The notes under the pieces were generated by a model. The model made no database searches and was not told the DNA's origin. It saw nothing but the letters and a program-made list of their open reading frames with translations. Positions 13,025 to 55,550 of a stretch of 64,000 nucleotides of DNA are shown here, piece by piece; within the stretch, counting starts at the first letter, position 1; each line of letters starts with the position of its first letter. Source of the DNA: a virus (Duplodnaviria > Caudoviricetes); IMG/VR virus record IMGVR_UViG_3300019872_000002, positions 13,186-77,185 of that record; one strand, written 5' to 3'. The position numbers and the translations under genes were made by a program.

Positions 13025-14992
13025 TTACTTGAATACAGCTCCTTCAAAAGATACCAGTCCGGTTATACCAGTTAAATAAACCACGTCAAAGGTTGTTGTT
13101 GTTTTGTTTGACACATAAAACACTGCGGCAGCCAGCATACTTGTAGGTGTTACAGATACTTTATATGTCGTATTAGCCATTGTCTGACCTATAGTAACCG
13201 TAAAAACTGTCTGTGCAGTCCCTGTTACTGAAAATGAATAAGGTATAGGTAAGTTGCTAGTTGTTGCAATTACCCCTGTTACTCCGGTTGGATAGGATAA
13301 ATAATTTGAATCTGCAAAAACAATCCTATCACTATCATAAGCTATTCCTTTTACAATTAATGGGTTATTAAATGTTTGAGTAGCTGACCACGTATGAGAA
13401 GTTGAGTAAATAGAAGATATATCAGAAGTATAAGCTACTGTTCCATCTAAAGCCCTCCATGTAGCGACATTCACAGAGCTATTAGTAGGTAAAGCAAAAC
13501 CTAATGTACCCACAGTATTCTTCATCAATAATTGGCTTGAACCCGCTGCAATATTCACCTCTCCAGCAGCAGGAGCTGAAATTCCAGAATTTGTTAAATT
13601 AACTGCCGCTGTATAAATATACCCCAATTGATTATCTATATAGTTACTTGCTATTCCTCCTGTAAATGTTTTTCTTCCTGCTGCTGATTGCGCAGTTGTA
13701 AGATTCATATAACCTGCTAAGTTAGCAGCTAAACGCCACTTACTTACAACTCCATTAACACCTGCGCTATCTACAGCATTTAATATACTTGGTGTTGTAG
13801 TGCTATTGGTAACAACAGGAGTAAGCAATCCATAACCAGATGTTGCAGCTACAGAGGTAACAGTGCCACTCCCTCCTGGTGCATAATTAGGTATATTTAA
13901 AGCTCCTGTACTTTGATTAAAAATTGCAGCACCAGAAGTTCCTGTAGTTGTTATTGTAATTAAATTTTGTTTTGAATCTAACTCCATCTTTCTTACTACA
14001 TCAGTAGAATTTGTTGGGGCAGTTGCTGCGGTAATTTTACCATTTACTTGTAACTTTTCTCCATTGTCCGTTGTAGTCCCAATAAGCGTATTACCATTCA
14101 GATAATTCTTGGCAGTCCCATTTGAATAGATATTATACTTATTTGTGCTCGAAGATAATGATAATCCTATTCCGTAATTAGTAGCTCCATTTGTCAAATC
14201 ATCTACCAATAATCCGTATTGTCTTGTAATGGCTGATCCAGCTCCAAGAGTCCCCTGTGTAGCTCTATAATGTATCACATCTGCTACTGTAAACGCAGCG
14301 GCAGCAGTCCCTAATACGCTCCTATACCCACTGGCAGAAGTCGTAACATCAGATTGTATAAAGTTAGAACTATAATTTCCAGTGGCACTGACGGCACCAA
14401 ATAAATTTCTATTATTATAATAATTTATTCCAGCAACTAAAGTTCCAGCTAAAGATAACTGGCCTCCTATAACTCCATTACCACTAATATTGAAATTAGC
14501 TGTTTGTTGTGAAGTATTATTAAATATATATAGAGGATCAGTCCCTGATTTAATGACACTAAAAGCTGATAATGTTTTAGCATAAGAAGGAACATTTGGA
14601 TCTGTTTCTACCGTCAGAAAACTACTAGGATTACCAGTTAATGGATACGCATCTGTAATACCATAACCTAAAATTGTTGTTGGTTTAGAGCCTATCTGAG
14701 CAAAATTATAATCATTAGATTGCGCAGTAACAACTCCTGTTCTTCCAAAAATAGAGCTTACGACACTACCACTAATACTTGAAAAAGTTATCCAACTGCT
14801 TCCATCATAATATTTCATTTGATTAGCAATAGTATCATACCATATAGATCCCTTTCCTATGAAAGGAGAGGTGCTTCTAACCGGAGGTAATAACCCATTC
14901 GTAAATTGAGTGGATGCGGGATTAATAGTTTGACTAAATGATGATGATATATATACAACCATCATTAAAAATGATATAATTATCCGTTTCAT
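13025..14992 (-). CDS. tail-fibre-like protein with N-terminal signal-peptide-like sequence
   Basis: G/T/S/N-rich beta repeats, IGTTTDNGEKLQVNG, C-terminal TTYKVSVTP..FYVSNKTTTTFDV module; N-terminus MKRIIISFLMMVVYISSSFSQ. Confidence 0.7.
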   Translation of the reverse strand: MKRIIISFLMMVVYISSSFSQTINPASTQFTNGLLPPVRSTSPFIGKGSIWYDTIANQMKYYDGSSWITFSSISGSVVSSIFGRTGVVTAQSNDYNFAQIGSKPTTILGYGITDAYPLTGNPSSFLTVETDPNVPSYAKTLSAFSVIKSGTDPLYIFNNTSQQTANFNISGNGVIGGQLSLAGTLVAGINYYNNRNLFGAVSATGNYSSNFIQSDVTTSASGYRSVLGTAAAAFTVADVIHYRATQGTLGAGSAITRQYGLLVDDLTNGATNYGIGLSLSSSTNKYNIYSNGTAKNYLNGNTLIGTTTDNGEKLQVNGKITAATAPTNSTDVVRKMELDSKQNLITITTTGTSGAAIFNQSTGALNIPNYAPGGSGTVTSVAATSGYGLLTPVVTNSTTTPSILNAVDSAGVNGVVSKWRLAANLAGYMNLTTAQSAAGRKTFTGGIASNYIDNQLGYIYTAAVNLTNSGISAPAAGEVNIAAGSSQLLMKNTVGTLGFALPTNSSVNVATWRALDGTVAYTSDISSIYSTSHTWSATQTFNNPLIVKGIAYDSDRIVFADSNYLSYPTGVTGVIATTSNLPIPYSFSVTGTAQTVFTVTIGQTMANTTYKVSVTPTSMLAAAVFYVSNKTTTTFDVVYLTGITGLVSFEGAVFK

Positions 14993-52130: not shown

Positions 52131-52857
52131 CGTTTTTATTTTTTATTTCTAAAATTATCTCATTGAATTTTGATTCCAACATGGATAAATCTTTATCCTT
52201 ATAAAAATCAGGTAAGTGTAAGCACATGTATTTAAAAGCATTCACTACAGATTCATCAGAGACAGCGCGACCTTCATTTTTTAATAAAGTTTTGAATTTA
52301 CTGATGATTGATATTACTTTTTTCCCAGATGTAGCATTAAAAGTAAATCCAATATGAAATTCTTTAAGCCAAAAATCTATAATCTGTCTATAAGATTCAT
52401 TTTCTGGTTTAGCTGTAGATACATTCTTTGATTTAGAAGATTTTTTTTGTGCAACAGAACCTTCCAAAGGAAGTTCTGTAATAAAAGAATTATCTATTGT
52501 ATTATTAACTGTATTACTATGTATAAAGGAATCTTTAATAGGGTCTTCAACTTTTGTTTTATAGGGTCTTAAAGAAAAGTTTGCGAGGGTCTTTAATATT
52601 CTTTTATTACCTTCTTCTGAATTTATCACACTTGAGATATACCCTTTCCTAACTAAGGAGTTTATCACCTCACTAACTCTCACTTTAGATACTCCAAAAA
52701 AATCAGAAAAATACTCATTGTTTGCAAAACATCCATCTTCATTATCTAGGCTAAATATCTCTACATAGAAAACTTTCTCCTGTAAAGTCATATCCTTACT
52801 TAACCAAACTTCTCTATCTATCCATATACCCTTGAAATCTCTTTTTTGATTTGCCAT
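52069..52857 (-). CDS. phage replication initiator with N-terminal winged HTH
   Basis: FKGIWI..EVW....LQEK...EI.SLD...GCFANNEYFS.FFGVS..RVSEVI.SL..KGYI; internal iterons. Confidence 0.8.
   Translation of the reverse strand: MANQKRDFKGIWIDREVWLSKDMTLQEKVFYVEIFSLDNEDGCFANNEYFSDFFGVSKVRVSEVINSLVRKGYISSVINSEEGNKRILKTLANFSLRPYKTKVEDPIKDSFIHSNTVNNTIDNSFITELPLEGSVAQKKSSKSKNVSTAKPENESYRQIIDFWLKEFHIGFTFNATSGKKVISIISKFKTLLKNEGRAVSDESVVNAFKYMCLHLPDFYKDKDLSMLESKFNEIILEIKNKNDGKPTGKQSIRATTAAKFSS
52540..52593. repeat. three AGGGTCTT direct repeats at a 23-bp period (putative origin iterons)
   Basis: Copies at 52540, 52563 and 52586 inside the initiator gene, next to an AT-rich tract at about 52480-52540. 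Confidence 0.7.
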
Positions 52858-52862
52858 TTTCT

Positions 52863-53075
52863 TTAATTTACTAAAGATTCTATTCTTGTTTCTAATTGGG
52901 TTTCGATAGCAAAAATCATAACCTCGTATCTTGCAATATCATTATGCTTCCCTTGAATTATCGATATCCCCAGTATTTCTGAGAACTGATGATTATAACA
53001 TTCTGATAGCTTTTTTAAAAAGAAATCTCTTAAATATATTAGCGTTTCAATTTTTAATTCGTTTAAATTTTCCAT
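52863..53075 (-). CDS. hypothetical protein
   Basis: 70-aa ORF. Confidence 0.55.
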   Translation of the reverse strand: MENLNELKIETLIYLRDFFLKKLSECYNHQFSEILGISIIQGKHNDIARYEVMIFAIETQLETRIESLVN

Positions 53076-53113
53076 CTGTTATTGTTTTTAAAACCGTTTC
53101 TTGATAAGAAACC

Positions 53114-53275
53114 CTATTTTAGGATTTCCCTAAGCTTTTTCTGTTTATCTTCCGATAGATTCCTAGTGCCCTTTAGACACATGTAAAAATAATTTGGCTG
53201 TACTCCGATCTTCTCGGCAAGGAAGGATTTCTTAAACCCTGACCCTTTTACTTTTTCTCTTAAAATTCCTGTCAT
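53114..53275 (-). CDS. small Cro/XRE-like HTH regulator (53 aa, not in ORF track)
   Basis: KKSFLAEKIGVQPNYFYMCLKGTRNLS helix-turn-helix; promoter 4 nt upstream. Confidence 0.7.
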   Translation of the reverse strand: MTGILREKVKGSGFKKSFLAEKIGVQPNYFYMCLKGTRNLSEDKQKKLREILK

Positions 53276-53279
53276 GAAG

Positions 53280-53310
53280 CAAATGTAGTGTAATTATTTA
53301 TAATCACAAA
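53280..53310 (-). promoter_or_regulatory. Bacteroidota-type promoter for HTH-replication operon
   Basis: TACATTTG with TTTG exactly 19 nt upstream. Confidence 0.75.
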
Positions 53311-53322
53311 TATTTTTCAAAT

Positions 53323-53354
53323 AAAAACCCCGACTATCTCACGACTGCCGGGGT
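53323..53354 (-). terminator. intrinsic terminator
   Basis: ACCCCG/CGGGGT stem followed by T-run. Confidence 0.65.
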
Positions 53355-53375
53355 CAGACTACTGTTTAACGTTTC

Positions 53376-53636
53376 TTAAAATCTGTTTGTGAGGTTTGCA
53401 AAGGTATTCCCTGTATCTGTCATCATGTAGTAAGTTGACTTCTTATACAGCGGTATTATGCGTTCTCCTGCATCGTAAAAGATAAAGGCGTATATTTCAT
53501 CGGAATCGTACCGTGATGCCTCTAAAGCCCTTAAAAACTCTTGTGAATGATGTACGTTGTGTACAAAGTTGTAATCCTGACCAAGACAAGAGTTATTCTC
53601 ATTGCCTTCACTGGTAATTCTTCTTAAAATGAACAT
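53376..53636 (-). CDS. hypothetical protein in its own transcription unit
   Basis: 86-aa ORF; TATCTTTG at 53668-53675 upstream, terminator downstream. Confidence 0.65.
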   Translation of the reverse strand: MFILRRITSEGNENNSCLGQDYNFVHNVHHSQEFLRALEASRYDSDEIYAFIFYDAGERIIPLYKKSTYYMMTDTGNTFANLTNRF

Positions 53637-53691
53637 AATGTATAAATTTATTTATGAATGTATGATTCAAAGATATGTAAAATTACATGAC

Positions 53692-53792
53692 AAAAAAAAG
53701 CCTACCCGAATTAACGAATAGGCTTTAAATCTTGGGCAACAAGCGATATGAGAGTTTTATCAAGCCGAAGTATCTCATATCTACGGCACCAA
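53692..53792 (-). ncRNA. putative ~100-nt small RNA with own promoter and terminator
   Basis: TACATTTG at 53797-53804; hairpin CTTGG/CCAAG plus GATATGAGA/TCTCATATC; 12-bp terminator with T8 at 53692-53726. Confidence 0.5.
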
Positions 53793-53816
53793 GTGACAAA
53801 TGTACAAAAATATCAG

Positions 53817-53888
53817 CGTTCCGAGTAGGGTTCGAACCTACGACCTATCGATTAACAGTCGATTGCACTACCGCTGTGCTACCGGAAC
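53817..53888 (-). tRNA. trnN: tRNA-Asn(GTT)
   Basis: Full cloverleaf: GTTCCGG/TCGGAAC acceptor, ATCGA-CTGTTAA-TCGAT, TTCGAAC T-loop; no encoded CCA. Confidence 0.93.
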
Positions 53889-53891
53889 AAG

Positions 53892-53964
53892 TGTACCCTA
53901 CAGGATTTGAACCTGTGACCGACTCGTTATGAGCGAGCTGCTCTGCCAGCTGAGCTAAGGGTAC
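53892..53964 (-). tRNA. tRNA with CAT anticodon, probably Ile2 (lysidine type) rather than Met
   Basis: GTACCCT/AGGGTAC acceptor with C4:G69 and C5:G68, loop CTCATAA, TTCAAAT T-loop. Confidence 0.85.
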
Positions 53965-53969
53965 GTTTG

Positions 53970-54040
53970 TTTTCCTACATAGATTCGAACTATGATTTTC
54001 AGAACCAAAATCTGACGTGCTACCATTGCACCATAGAAAA
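53970..54040 (-). tRNA. trnQ: tRNA-Gln(TTG)
   Basis: TTTTCTA/TAGGAAA acceptor, TCAGA-TTTTGGT-TCTGA, TTCGAAT. Confidence 0.9.
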
Positions 54041-54046
54041 GTATTG

Positions 54047-54120
54047 TAGCGCAAGCGAGACTCGAACTCGCAACCTCCTGACCCCAAATCAGGTAATCTA
54101 ACCAATTGATATATTGCACT
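54047..54120 (-). tRNA. trnP: tRNA-Pro(TGG)
   Basis: AGTGCAA/TTGCGCT acceptor, CCTGA-TTTGGGG-TCAGG, TTCGAGT. Confidence 0.9.
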
Positions 54121-54125
54121 ATTTG

Positions 54126-54196
54126 CAGGCATAGCTGGATTCGAACCAACACTGTAGCTTTTGGAGGGCTATAGACTACCGTTATCGTATACGCCT
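54126..54196 (-). tRNA. trnW: tRNA-Trp(CCA)
   Basis: AGGCGTA/TATGCCT acceptor, loop CTCCAAA, GTTGG-TTCGAAT-CCAGC. Confidence 0.9.
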
Positions 54197-54201
54197 AAAT
54201 G

Positions 54202-54235
54202 AAAAAAGCCTCTTAGAAATAATCCAAGAGGCTTT
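54202..54235 (-). terminator. intrinsic terminator (attenuator) immediately upstream of the tRNA array
   Basis: 13-bp stem AAAGCCTCTTGGA/TCTAAGAGGCTTT within a T6 run, ending 5 nt before tRNA-Trp. Confidence 0.8.
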
Positions 54236-54254
54236 GATCGTATATTTTTAAAAT

Positions 54255-54323
54255 CTACATACCAGTTCCCCCTAGAATACTATTCCAGTTATTGGGTTGC
54301 TGTTGTATATTTATTGTTCTCAT
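54255..54323 (-). CDS. 22-aa leader peptide MRTINIQQQPNNWNSILGGTGM (putative attenuator sensor)
   Basis: ATG 4 nt after a TATGTTTG -7 box; codons 4-14 use only amino acids of the downstream tRNAs. Confidence 0.75.
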   Translation of the reverse strand: MRTINIQQQPNNWNSILGGTGM

Positions 54324-54327
54324 GTCA

Positions 54328-54335
54328 CAAACATA
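54328..54335 (-). promoter_or_regulatory. -7 promoter element for leader/tRNA operon
   Basis: TATGTTTG; no canonical -33 at the usual spacing. Confidence 0.6.
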
Positions 54336-54376
54336 GAGTAAAAATTCACAATTTTATAATATTATTGTGAAATAAT

Positions 54377-54405
54377 AAAAAAGCCCCACCGTTAAGTGAG
54401 GCTTT
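54377..54405 (-). terminator. intrinsic terminator insulating the tRNA operon from upstream transcription
   Basis: AAAGCCTCAC/GTGGGGCTTT stem plus T-run on - strand. Confidence 0.7.
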
Positions 54406-54462
54406 AGTTCCCTGAGACATTTTCTCATTCAAGGGATCATCTGTCATTTAAAATTGTATATC

Positions 54463-55044
54463 TTAAGCGTCCACTGGCTCACCAGCTTCTTTTTCTTTTA
54501 ATGCTTCAACCTCAGCTTTGCTAAGTGTTGCTCCGGCCATCCATTCTTTAGTCAACACCTGCAGATCGTTGCACATTTCTTCCAGATTGACTACCAGAGG
54601 GAATTTGTTCTCTGCGTGACGATCTAACGCGATAACAGGAGTCTCAAACTTAACCTTGAAAGGCTTGCCGAACTCTTCAATCAGCTTGTAACCATATAAT
54701 TTTACGCTTTCTACGTTTGCATTACCGCCAAACACGGCTTTCGTTACGTTTACTCCATCAAATCGCTCATCTTCGTTGTATTCAAACTCACGGAAGTATT
54801 TGTCGTAGTCCATATTCTCATCCAGATCAATCGAATGGCCGACAAGGGTAGTTCCGTACATCAGCATCGGTATTAAACGATCCCAAGCATCCGAAAGCTG
54901 CTTATTGATCGGCTGGTCGGACTTCTTTGAATGCTCTGCATTGAACATCTGTCTTTCTTTGTTCTGTTCTACAGCGGAATAAGTTACCTTAACATACTGT
55001 TTCTTGCTTTTTACTGTTACCTCTAACGATTTGTAATTCAACAT
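54463..55044 (-). CDS. hypothetical protein
   Basis: 193-aa ORF. Confidence 0.7.
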   Translation of the reverse strand: MLNYKSLEVTVKSKKQYVKVTYSAVEQNKERQMFNAEHSKKSDQPINKQLSDAWDRLIPMLMYGTTLVGHSIDLDENMDYDKYFREFEYNEDERFDGVNVTKAVFGGNANVESVKLYGYKLIEEFGKPFKVKFETPVIALDRHAENKFPLVVNLEEMCNDLQVLTKEWMAGATLSKAEVEALKEKEAGEPVDA

Positions 55045-55079
55045 AATTTTTGCTTTTAATGTGTGATCAAATTTAATTA

Positions 55080-55550
55080 TTATTTTGTGTTATTTTTATT
55101 TCTTTTGCTTTTTTCCGGATCAGGTTCCGGTAAGTCTATTCCTAAGAATTGGCCTGCCCACATCCTTATTTTTTCTGTGTATTCATTGAATTGTATTGTT
55201 GTCAAATCAGCCGTACTCATGACTTTGGTCATTACTTCTCCGGTTTCTGGATCAGCAACAAGACCACCGTCCTTATCCTTTATCTCAGTCTTTAAATACT
55301 TCTTGGCCATTTGATCTTTAACATCTAGCATTTCCATCCCTGTCTCTTCGGCTATAATACTCATATACCAATGCAAGGTGCTGTTCTGATCTACGCTTCT
55401 TTTAGTGTAGTAGGTCTCATAAGTAACCAGCACCCGTACTGACTTACCAAAGTCCTGTAGATTTTGCTTTACAACGCCTCTATTGAGGTGAACTAGCTTC
55501 GGATTGTTTGGATCGCTTAAATCCAGGTCGGCTATTGAGGTGCGTTTCAT
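55080..55550 (-). CDS. NinB/Orf-like recombination mediator
   Basis: RSVDQN..LHW....IAEETG...KDQM...STADL...FNEY.EKI..WA. Confidence 0.7.
   Translation of the reverse strand: MKRTSIADLDLSDPNNPKLVHLNRGVVKQNLQDFGKSVRVLVTYETYYTKRSVDQNSTLHWYMSIIAEETGMEMLDVKDQMAKKYLKTEIKDKDGGLVADPETGEVMTKVMSTADLTTIQFNEYTEKIRMWAGQFLGIDLPEPDPEKSKRNKNNTK

Follow-up and report, generated by a model that had tools for sequence, protein, structure and literature searches.

A leader open reading frame upstream of a phage tRNA array

A 22-codon open reading frame (ORF) lies upstream of five clustered transfer RNA (tRNA) genes in a podophage-like genome, the 77,185-base-pair (bp) IMG/VR virus record IMGVR_UViG_3300019872_000002, of which the 64,000-nucleotide (nt) stretch analysed here (positions 13,186 to 77,185) is referred to as the window. 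This 77-kilobase (kb) genome carries a single such leader cassette, on the minus strand (Table 1). The -7 box, the 4-nt gap, the 22-codon ORF, the terminator and the five tRNA genes, all named in an original prediction made from the letters of the window, are present, the first three at the positions it gave. A second terminator, belonging to the upstream gene, shields the cassette from transcription arriving from that side. The terminator between leader and array stops 6 nt short of tRNA-Trp, the array tRNAs are separated from one another by 2-5 nt, and ARAGORN finds no tRNA besides these five in the whole 77-kb genome.

Table 1. Positions of the cassette features in the window (MFE, minimum free energy; aa, amino acids)
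Feature	Position	Strand	Basis
Terminator of the upstream gene (193-aa gene)	54405-54380	-	terminator scan and sequence
Bacteroidota sigma-A -7 box TATGTTTG	54335-54328	-	sequence
Leader ORF, 22 codons + TAG, MRTINIQQQPNNWNSILGGTGM	54323-54255 (ATG at 54323, TAG 54257-54255)	-	
Putative sensing run, codons 4-14 (I N I Q Q Q P N N W N); also region 1	54314-54282	-	
Region 2, predicted 3' strand of leader hairpin	54278-54257	-	MFE and truncated-transcript folds, duplex energy against shuffles
AT-rich spacer, 19 nt	54254-54236	-	
Intrinsic terminator (regions 3:4): 13-bp stem, 5-nt loop, T6 run	54235-54202	-	
tRNA-Trp (CCA)	54196-54125	-	ARAGORN; Rfam tRNA 48 bits
tRNA-Pro (UGG)	54120-54046	-	ARAGORN and Rfam
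tRNA-Gln (UUG)	54040-53969	-	ARAGORN and Rfam
CAT-anticodon tRNA, probably tRNA-Ile2	53964-53891	-	ARAGORN and Rfam
tRNA-Asn (GUU), final array gene	53888-53816	-	ARAGORN and Rfam

Codons 4-14 of the leader (ATA AAT ATA CAA CAG CAA CCC AAT AAC TGG AAT) are restricted to ATA, AAY, CAR, CCC and TGG, and every array tRNA is represented among them; the unbroken cognate run that had been noticed there, covering all five tRNAs, is confirmed in the sequence. The cognate codon set has a frequency of 0.18 in the phage background, taken as the codon usage of 23 long ORFs of the window phage, and 11/16 codons are cognate in the leader (binomial tail 1.3e-5). Across the leaders described below the binomial tail lies between 1e-5 and 4e-4 each.

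Homologous leaders and their arrays

Four relatives (L002, L043, L087 and L125 in Table 2) were found by a neighbour-gene search, which gave L002 only, and by DNA pattern scans. A pattern without the promoter part returned mostly chance matches, with three real loci left after filtering; a stricter pattern returned two further loci in metagenomes, no further loci in viral contigs and none in genomes; a relaxed pattern added nothing new among the matches listed. All patterns demanded the GGT(G) tail, so the size of the family is a lower bound, and conservation of the GGTGM tail is for the same reason not independent evidence. Each relative has the box, the gap and the ATG (exactly 4 nt past TAnnTTTG in all five homologues), an ORF of exactly 22 codons that includes the GGTGM tail, a stop codon in the same place, and then a terminator and tRNAs. 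That stop is TAG, TGA or TAA, and frame 0 is open in 5/5 homologues, with frames +1 and +2 closed by 1-3 stops. At the level of sequence, then, the short ORF expected of the attenuator family is there: 22 codons, with the ATG at the predicted +1.

Table 2. Leader peptides and tRNA contents of the ten cassettes (CAT, tRNA with anticodon CAT)
Cassette	Leader	Before the array	tRNAs
WIN (window)	MRT INIQQQPNNWN SIL...	terminator	W, P, Q, CAT, N
L002	MKA IQISQSSSNWS KDQ...	terminator	degenerate W-like, Q, S(GCU), S(UGA), CAT, N
L043	MNK QQLHQQPI LIDTSQ...	terminator	P, Q, H, CAT
L087	MNFKSL HRQPQLL DYSR... (R = CGC/CGA, L = CTT)	terminator	P, Q, H, R(ACG), tRNA-like UAG
L125	MKIQK SYQCSNSWS TDQ...	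terminator	W, Q, S, C, S, Y, N
Gundel_1 cassette 1 (Tenacibaculum phage, NC_062747.1)	MKTKL YSYSCFSSWF KNRAG	terminator	Tyr, Trp, Phe, Ser, Cys, Ser
Gundel_1 cassette 2 (NC_062747.1)	MKT NNLHIQQNNLP VFLEGFLYM	terminator, HNH gene	Pro, Gln, CAT, Asn, Leu(UAG)
Panino cassette A (Maribacter phage, PP540027.1)	MKT QRLHQELEQP ...		Pro, Glu, Gln, His, Leu(UAG), Leu(UAA), Arg(ACG)
Panino cassette B (PP540027.1)	MKTKG NTFSWFNYSNCSDCNC GGTG...		Tyr, Ser, Ser, Asn, Trp, Phe, Cys
Panino third cassette (PP540027.1)	M RAATGIAIIGRTKDK ...		Ala, Lys, Ile(GAU), Gly

The original prediction had proposed asking whether leader codons change when the tRNA content changes, and they do, both among the homologues and in the cassettes of cultured phages. 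Codons for Pro, His, Arg(CGN), Leu(CUN), Cys, Trp and Ser(UCN) occur only in leaders whose array has the matching tRNA, and every one of the tRNAs presumed to be under leader control in the five homologues (27/27) has at least one cognate codon in its own leader. Across 120 permutations, no other pairing of leaders with arrays scores as high as the true one, which has 50 cognate codons (mean 35.6). Between the window phage and L002, identity is 95% in the 40 nt before the ATG but 58% in codons 2-17; the putative sensing portion has diverged together with the tRNA content.

Similarly built cassettes in cultured phages

The cassettes of cultured phages were found independently of any pattern, by a tRNA scan of terminase relatives followed by reading of the upstream sequence. 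Two lie in the Tenacibaculum phage Gundel_1 and three in the Maribacter phage Panino (Table 2). When all ten cassettes are taken together, 56/56 tRNAs presumed to be under leader control have a cognate codon in their own leader, and 100/160 codons at positions 2-17 are cognate. Shuffling the pairings 200,000 times gave at most 97 cognate codons (mean 50.7), short of the 100 of the true pairing. In all ten, a hairpin and U-tract stand directly before the first tRNA, and outside the GGTGM family the leader ends vary (NRAG, FLYM, VDGY, ISVL). The relative Cellulophaga phage phi19:3, whose single tRNA is a tRNA-Cys, lacks a leader. A BLAST search of the cassette against INPHARED gave generic tRNA matches only, and in the paper describing Gundel the tRNAs were merely counted, as "ten tRNA genes" (PMC8776804).

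Promoter, host and predicted leaderless start

The 726-aa large terminase of the window phage has matches confined to phages of Flavobacteriia (Flavobacterium, Cellulophaga, Tenacibaculum and Maribacter), at about 25% identity, which makes a Bacteroidota host, and hence a promoter of the TAnnTTTG type, a reasonable inference. In Flavobacterium psychrophilum this sigma-A box spans -12 to -5 (PMC9723704). A box at that distance, followed by 4 nt and the ATG, predicts a start on the A of the ATG, and the leader messenger RNA (mRNA) would then be leaderless. The arrangement of TAnnTTTG, 4 nt and ATG recurs in 9/10 cassettes. It also stands before two protein ORFs of the window phage on the minus strand, at 53275 (53 aa, conserved in L002) and 37129 (58 aa), and this phage may express several of its early genes from leaderless mRNAs.

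In 5/5 homologues no -7 box was found from the leader ATG through to the last tRNA of the array; in the window, the first one past the leader ATG comes after tRNA-Asn. With no promoter of its own, the array would yield tRNAs only by read-through of the terminator.

Alternative hairpins and the position of the ribosome

MFE folding gives each of the five homologous leaders one long hairpin, in which codons 5-14 are paired with codons 16-23 (z-scores against dinucleotide shuffles -1.7 to -4.1). The putative sensing run of the window thereby doubles as the 5' strand, or region 1, of the leader hairpin, and the UCUAGGGGG segment of region 2 (54276-54268) has an alternative pairing with the 5' arm of the terminator that would constitute an antiterminator. 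This second state was folded with the 5' strand removed, mimicking a stalled ribosome, and with the 3' arm of the terminator omitted. Under these conditions GGNGG (codons 17-19) pairs with CCYCY of the terminator 5' arm in 5/5 MFE folds, and GGUAUGU pairs with an AUAUAC-like element of the spacer, also in 5/5. In the window, spacer AUAUAC is able to pair with the GGUAUGU of region 2 in this fold; for the intrinsic terminator of the window the duplex energy is -18.5 kcal/mol. Mutually exclusive 1:2, 2:3 and 3:4 hairpins are predicted in all ten cassettes; a MAFFT alignment failed to bring the terminators into structural register.

The effect of the ribosome was modelled by a partition function in which its footprint was kept unpaired. 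The terminator 5' arm is predicted to be sequestered for stalls up to A-site codons 13-14 and released from 14-15 on. This release boundary coincides with the end of the codon-matched run, and the cassettes of cultured phages agree within 0-2 codons (n=5). Stop codon and terminator stem are 18-26 nt apart in each of the ten cassettes, a distance at which a terminating ribosome should leave the stem intact.

A predicted attenuator of tRNA genes

We propose that the cassette is probably a ribosome-mediated transcription attenuator of the trp/his/ilv type which controls phage tRNA genes and exerts negative feedback on tRNA supply. The idea at the core of the original prediction, that a translated leader reports on the downstream tRNAs through a terminator/antiterminator switch, gains support from the covariation and from the predicted hairpins. 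Hypothetically, the switch would work as follows. We infer that the A of the leader ATG is the transcription start, which would make the mRNA leaderless, and that a ribosome translates the 22-codon leader as RNA polymerase approaches the terminator. With an ample supply of the tRNAs that read codons 4-14 (Ile-AUA, Asn, Gln, Pro and Trp), the ribosome would soon reach the last codons or the stop and there cover region 2 (codons 16-23); the terminator would then form and transcription would stop 6 nt before tRNA-Trp. A shortage of any one of them would make the ribosome stall within codons 4-14; the stall would melt the 1:2 hairpin but leave region 2 available for pairing with the 5' arm of the terminator. 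This 2:3 antiterminator would allow the polymerase to enter the five tRNA genes. In other words, the net logic would be that of a multi-input OR gate with negative feedback on tRNA supply.

Several observations weigh against this proposal. One concerns the codons themselves. The caveat raised with the original prediction, that CCC is non-canonical for a UGG anticodon, stands; CCC is the rarest Pro codon of the window phage (24/479), and the leader CCC pairs with GGG inside the leader hairpin. Some of the sensing codons (CAG, CCC, UGG, CAU) also lie in helices, so that structure constrains them too, and in the leaders of both L043 and L087 the stretch from codon 4 to codon 14 includes 4 codons without a matching tRNA. 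The predicted structures are a second concern. The 2:3 pairing is a generic one of G-rich with C-rich sequence, cross-instance duplexes being equally stable, and it clearly beats shuffles in 3/5 leaders and is no better in 2/5; the register of the 1:2 helix slides between homologues; and in several cassettes the equilibrium folds favour the antiterminator even without a ribosome. Leaderless mRNAs, moreover, are a minority in Bacteroidota, at 5.5% and 3.7% (PMC9723704 among the sources). Some of the tRNAs that enter the counts are marginal: L002 has a Trp-like gene, the Leu tRNA of L087 scores 28.6 and the Tyr tRNA of L125 27.8 bits, the Tyr and Trp tRNAs of Gundel score 27.8 and 25.7 bits, and three supporting tRNAs of the homologous family are at or under the Rfam threshold. 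Finally, in cassette 2 of Gundel_1 an HNH gene with its own promoter sits between leader and array.

That gene (Gundel_1 L271:765-1285, NC_062747.1), which by eye resembles an HNH endonuclease, has its own -7 box and is inserted after the leader-terminator, ahead of the Pro-Gln-CAT-Asn-Leu block. The insertion may be mobile and may loosen, in part, the coupling of the array to its leader.

Alternative explanations

The leader could be translated and tuned to the tRNAs but act by another route or with opposite polarity, for example through stall-dependent processing or stability of the precursor, through Rho or ribosome-rescue effects, or as a feed-forward device in which efficient translation raises tRNA output. 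The covariation shows that decoding of these codons matters, not how it matters, the 2:3 helix lacks instance-specific covariation, and a fold that already favours the antiterminator at equilibrium without a ribosome, as in several cassettes, would leave room for such a route. We nevertheless think it unlikely, because a canonical hairpin and U-tract stand directly before the first tRNA in 10/10 cassettes, the matched run stops at the predicted masking boundary, and the 18-26 nt gap speaks against a terminating ribosome that melts the terminator.

It is very unlikely, in our estimation, that the leader is instead a small gene whose 22-aa product, with its conserved GGTGM tail, has an independent function, and that the tRNAs arise by constitutive read-through of a leaky terminator. 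L087 does retain its C-terminal GGTGM through synonymous changes, and Panino cassette B has GGTG. The conservation of GGTGM is, however, partly due to the search pattern, the leaders of other cassettes end quite differently (NRAG, FLYM, VDGY, ISVL), and the nucleotides of GGNGG and GGUAUGU are predicted pairing strands. A peptide acting in trans also gives no reason for a variable middle that tracks the tRNA set.

A structured small RNA, made of promoter, hairpin and terminator and with the ORF incidental to it, strikes us as highly improbable. The leader hairpin is stable and conserved, and a second promoter-hairpin-terminator unit without an ORF lies just past the array (53804-53697). Against this, frame 0 is open and the others are closed in 5/5 homologues, three different stop codons (TAG, TGA, TAA) occupy one position, and the ATG falls at the predicted +1; the covariation of codons and tRNAs would be left unexplained by a non-coding RNA.

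Chance resemblance in an AT-rich spacer, which might be suspected because AT-rich DNA abounds in Asn, Ile and Gln codons and because the match was originally spotted by looking through the whole window, is refuted by the binomial tails for each leader and by the shuffled pairings, 0/200,000 of which reach the observed match, and 56/56 tRNAs are covered, rare Trp, Cys and His included.

If the attenuator reading is right, what it is for is a further question. Host anticodon nucleases, or other defences that deplete tRNAs, would cut specific host tRNAs, and the ensuing stall on the leader might switch on nuclease-resistant phage copies of the same tRNAs; this counter-defence hypothesis would also account for the irregular anticodon arms of several array tRNAs, and we regard it as possible but doubtful. 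Homeostasis of tRNA supply explains the data equally as well as replacement of nuclease-destroyed tRNAs. ATA makes up 41% of the Ile codons of the window phage, which makes a supply-and-demand rationale available without any host defence.

Identities of the array tRNAs

The CAT tRNA of the window has a G1-C72 pair and is therefore not an initiator. It also has C4-G69/C5-G68, which are determinants for TilS of E. coli. All of the leader-controlled CAT tRNAs (4/4) have an ATA codon in their own leader, and the leader of the Ile(GAU) cassette contains mainly ATT/ATC (three) with one unmatched ATA. This distribution and the three base pairs just named support the CAT tRNA as a decoder of AUA, and the window gene is probably a tRNA-Ile2 that reads AUA after lysidine modification.

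The leaders also prompted a search of gaps in the arrays, where Infernal or relaxed ARAGORN recovered a Leu(UAG) tRNA of L087 and the Cys and Tyr tRNAs of L125, all three of them absent from the default ARAGORN output. The UAG tRNA-like gene (L087:2591-2670) has a 20-nt insertion in the D-arm and a short variable arm, unlike bacterial tRNA-Leu; it is followed by a T8 run and matches the two CTT codons of its leader. The Cys-like GCA tRNAs at L125:403-476 and Gundel_1 L268:1673-1746 have three non-standard pairs in the anticodon stem, and ARAGORN reads an 8-nt loop in them, 'ctgc' or 'ttgc'; each leader keeps a Cys codon, and the oddity is common to one uncultured and one cultured phage.

Two CAT tRNAs stand alone, outside leader control (L002:5650-5742 and L087:2690-2777). 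In each, exactly 4 nt separate a -7 box (TAGATTTG or TACATTTG) from the first base of the tRNA, so the transcript would start at the mature 5' end and processing by RNase P is perhaps not needed. The one in L087 follows a T-run, and the L087 leader is without ATA. In L125, some 90 nt between tRNA-Ser(UGA) and tRNA-Tyr (575-665) hold long inverted repeats, GCGATACCCC ... GGGGTATCG, and are not a tRNA.

Surroundings of the cassette in the window

At the 80% threshold ARAGORN calls a tRNA-Leu(taa) at 54203-54281 on the minus strand, over the 3' half of the leader and the terminator. The call occurs in the window phage only and not in the homologues, and it is probably spurious. Among the neighbouring genes, Pfam gave no function beyond one helix-turn-helix domain. 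The unit at 53804-53697 on the minus strand, directly after tRNA-Asn, consists of a -7 box (TACATTTG), about 75 nt with the potential for a long hairpin, and a terminator of 12 bp with T8. No ORF runs across it, and it resembles a self-contained small RNA; it is missing from the same place in L002.

Relation to known attenuators

Leader-peptide attenuation has its single-input archetypes in trp and his. The cassette is closer to the ilvGMEDA (Ile/Leu/Val) and thr (Thr/Ile) leaders, in which a short ORF is likewise rich in regulatory codons and several amino acids are sensed; as in these attenuators, a terminator precedes the controlled genes, and 1:2/2:3/3:4 alternatives with read-out through the position of the ribosome are predicted. 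Unlike ilv and thr, it would control tRNA genes rather than enzymes, so that the sensor feeds back on the decoding molecules themselves; there are up to seven inputs, the carriers are phages of Flavobacteriia, a leaderless mRNA is predicted, and there is no sequence or Rfam relationship. The scope of classical attenuators takes in biosynthesis, transport and aminoacyl-tRNA synthetase genes, and the five tRNAs that would be controlled here fall outside it. Another known case is pheST (pheM) of E. coli, a leader-peptide attenuator of phenylalanyl-tRNA synthetase. There too a component of the translation apparatus is attenuated through the availability of charged tRNA, but the input is single (Phe), the gene belongs to the host, and it encodes a synthetase rather than tRNAs.

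T-box riboswitches likewise tie the status of tRNA to terminator read-through via an antiterminator. They differ in binding uncharged tRNA directly, through a specifier codon, with no need of translation, and cmscan gave no T-box (RF00230) match in 52500-55500 at E up to 10. No Rfam leader family covers the leader; the matches were sub-threshold only, namely Phe_leader (RF01859) with 21.7-25 bits against 55, the trpB motif with 28.7 against 59 and L10_leader with 19.8 against 44.

A partial precedent comes from mycobacteria, where leaderless polycysteine short ORFs are reported to act as Cys-responsive attenuators (bioRxiv 10.1101/834739). Both systems have a leaderless short ORF whose codon content makes, or here would make, downstream expression responsive to decoding. 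The mycobacterial ORFs differ in having one amino-acid input and serving cysteine-metabolism operons, in another phylum and with neither phage nor tRNA genes. Leader-peptide attenuation has been predicted for flavobacterial amino-acid operons (PMC9723704). A full-text literature search found no published leader-peptide control or attenuation of tRNA genes.

Significance

The leader can serve as an annotation aid, in that it predicts which odd or low-scoring tRNA genes function and what they decode; here it supports AUA decoding by the CAT tRNA and led to Leu, Cys and Tyr tRNAs overlooked by ARAGORN at its default settings. The cassettes would be natural, small and codon-specific sensors of tRNA availability. 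The homologous leader family is a natural covariation series with cultured relatives. Since Gundel_1 and Panino, two cultured phages with known hosts (Tenacibaculum sp. AHE14PA and Maribacter halichondriae), carry similarly built cassettes, the idea is directly testable. If the counter-defence hypothesis were true, each leader would list the tRNAs under attack in the hosts of that phage.

Phage tRNA genes are usually viewed as constitutive supplements to codon usage or as spares against tRNA-cutting defences. If the attenuator that we propose is real, these phages would gauge decoding capacity and tune their tRNA output to it, a new wiring of a textbook mechanism.

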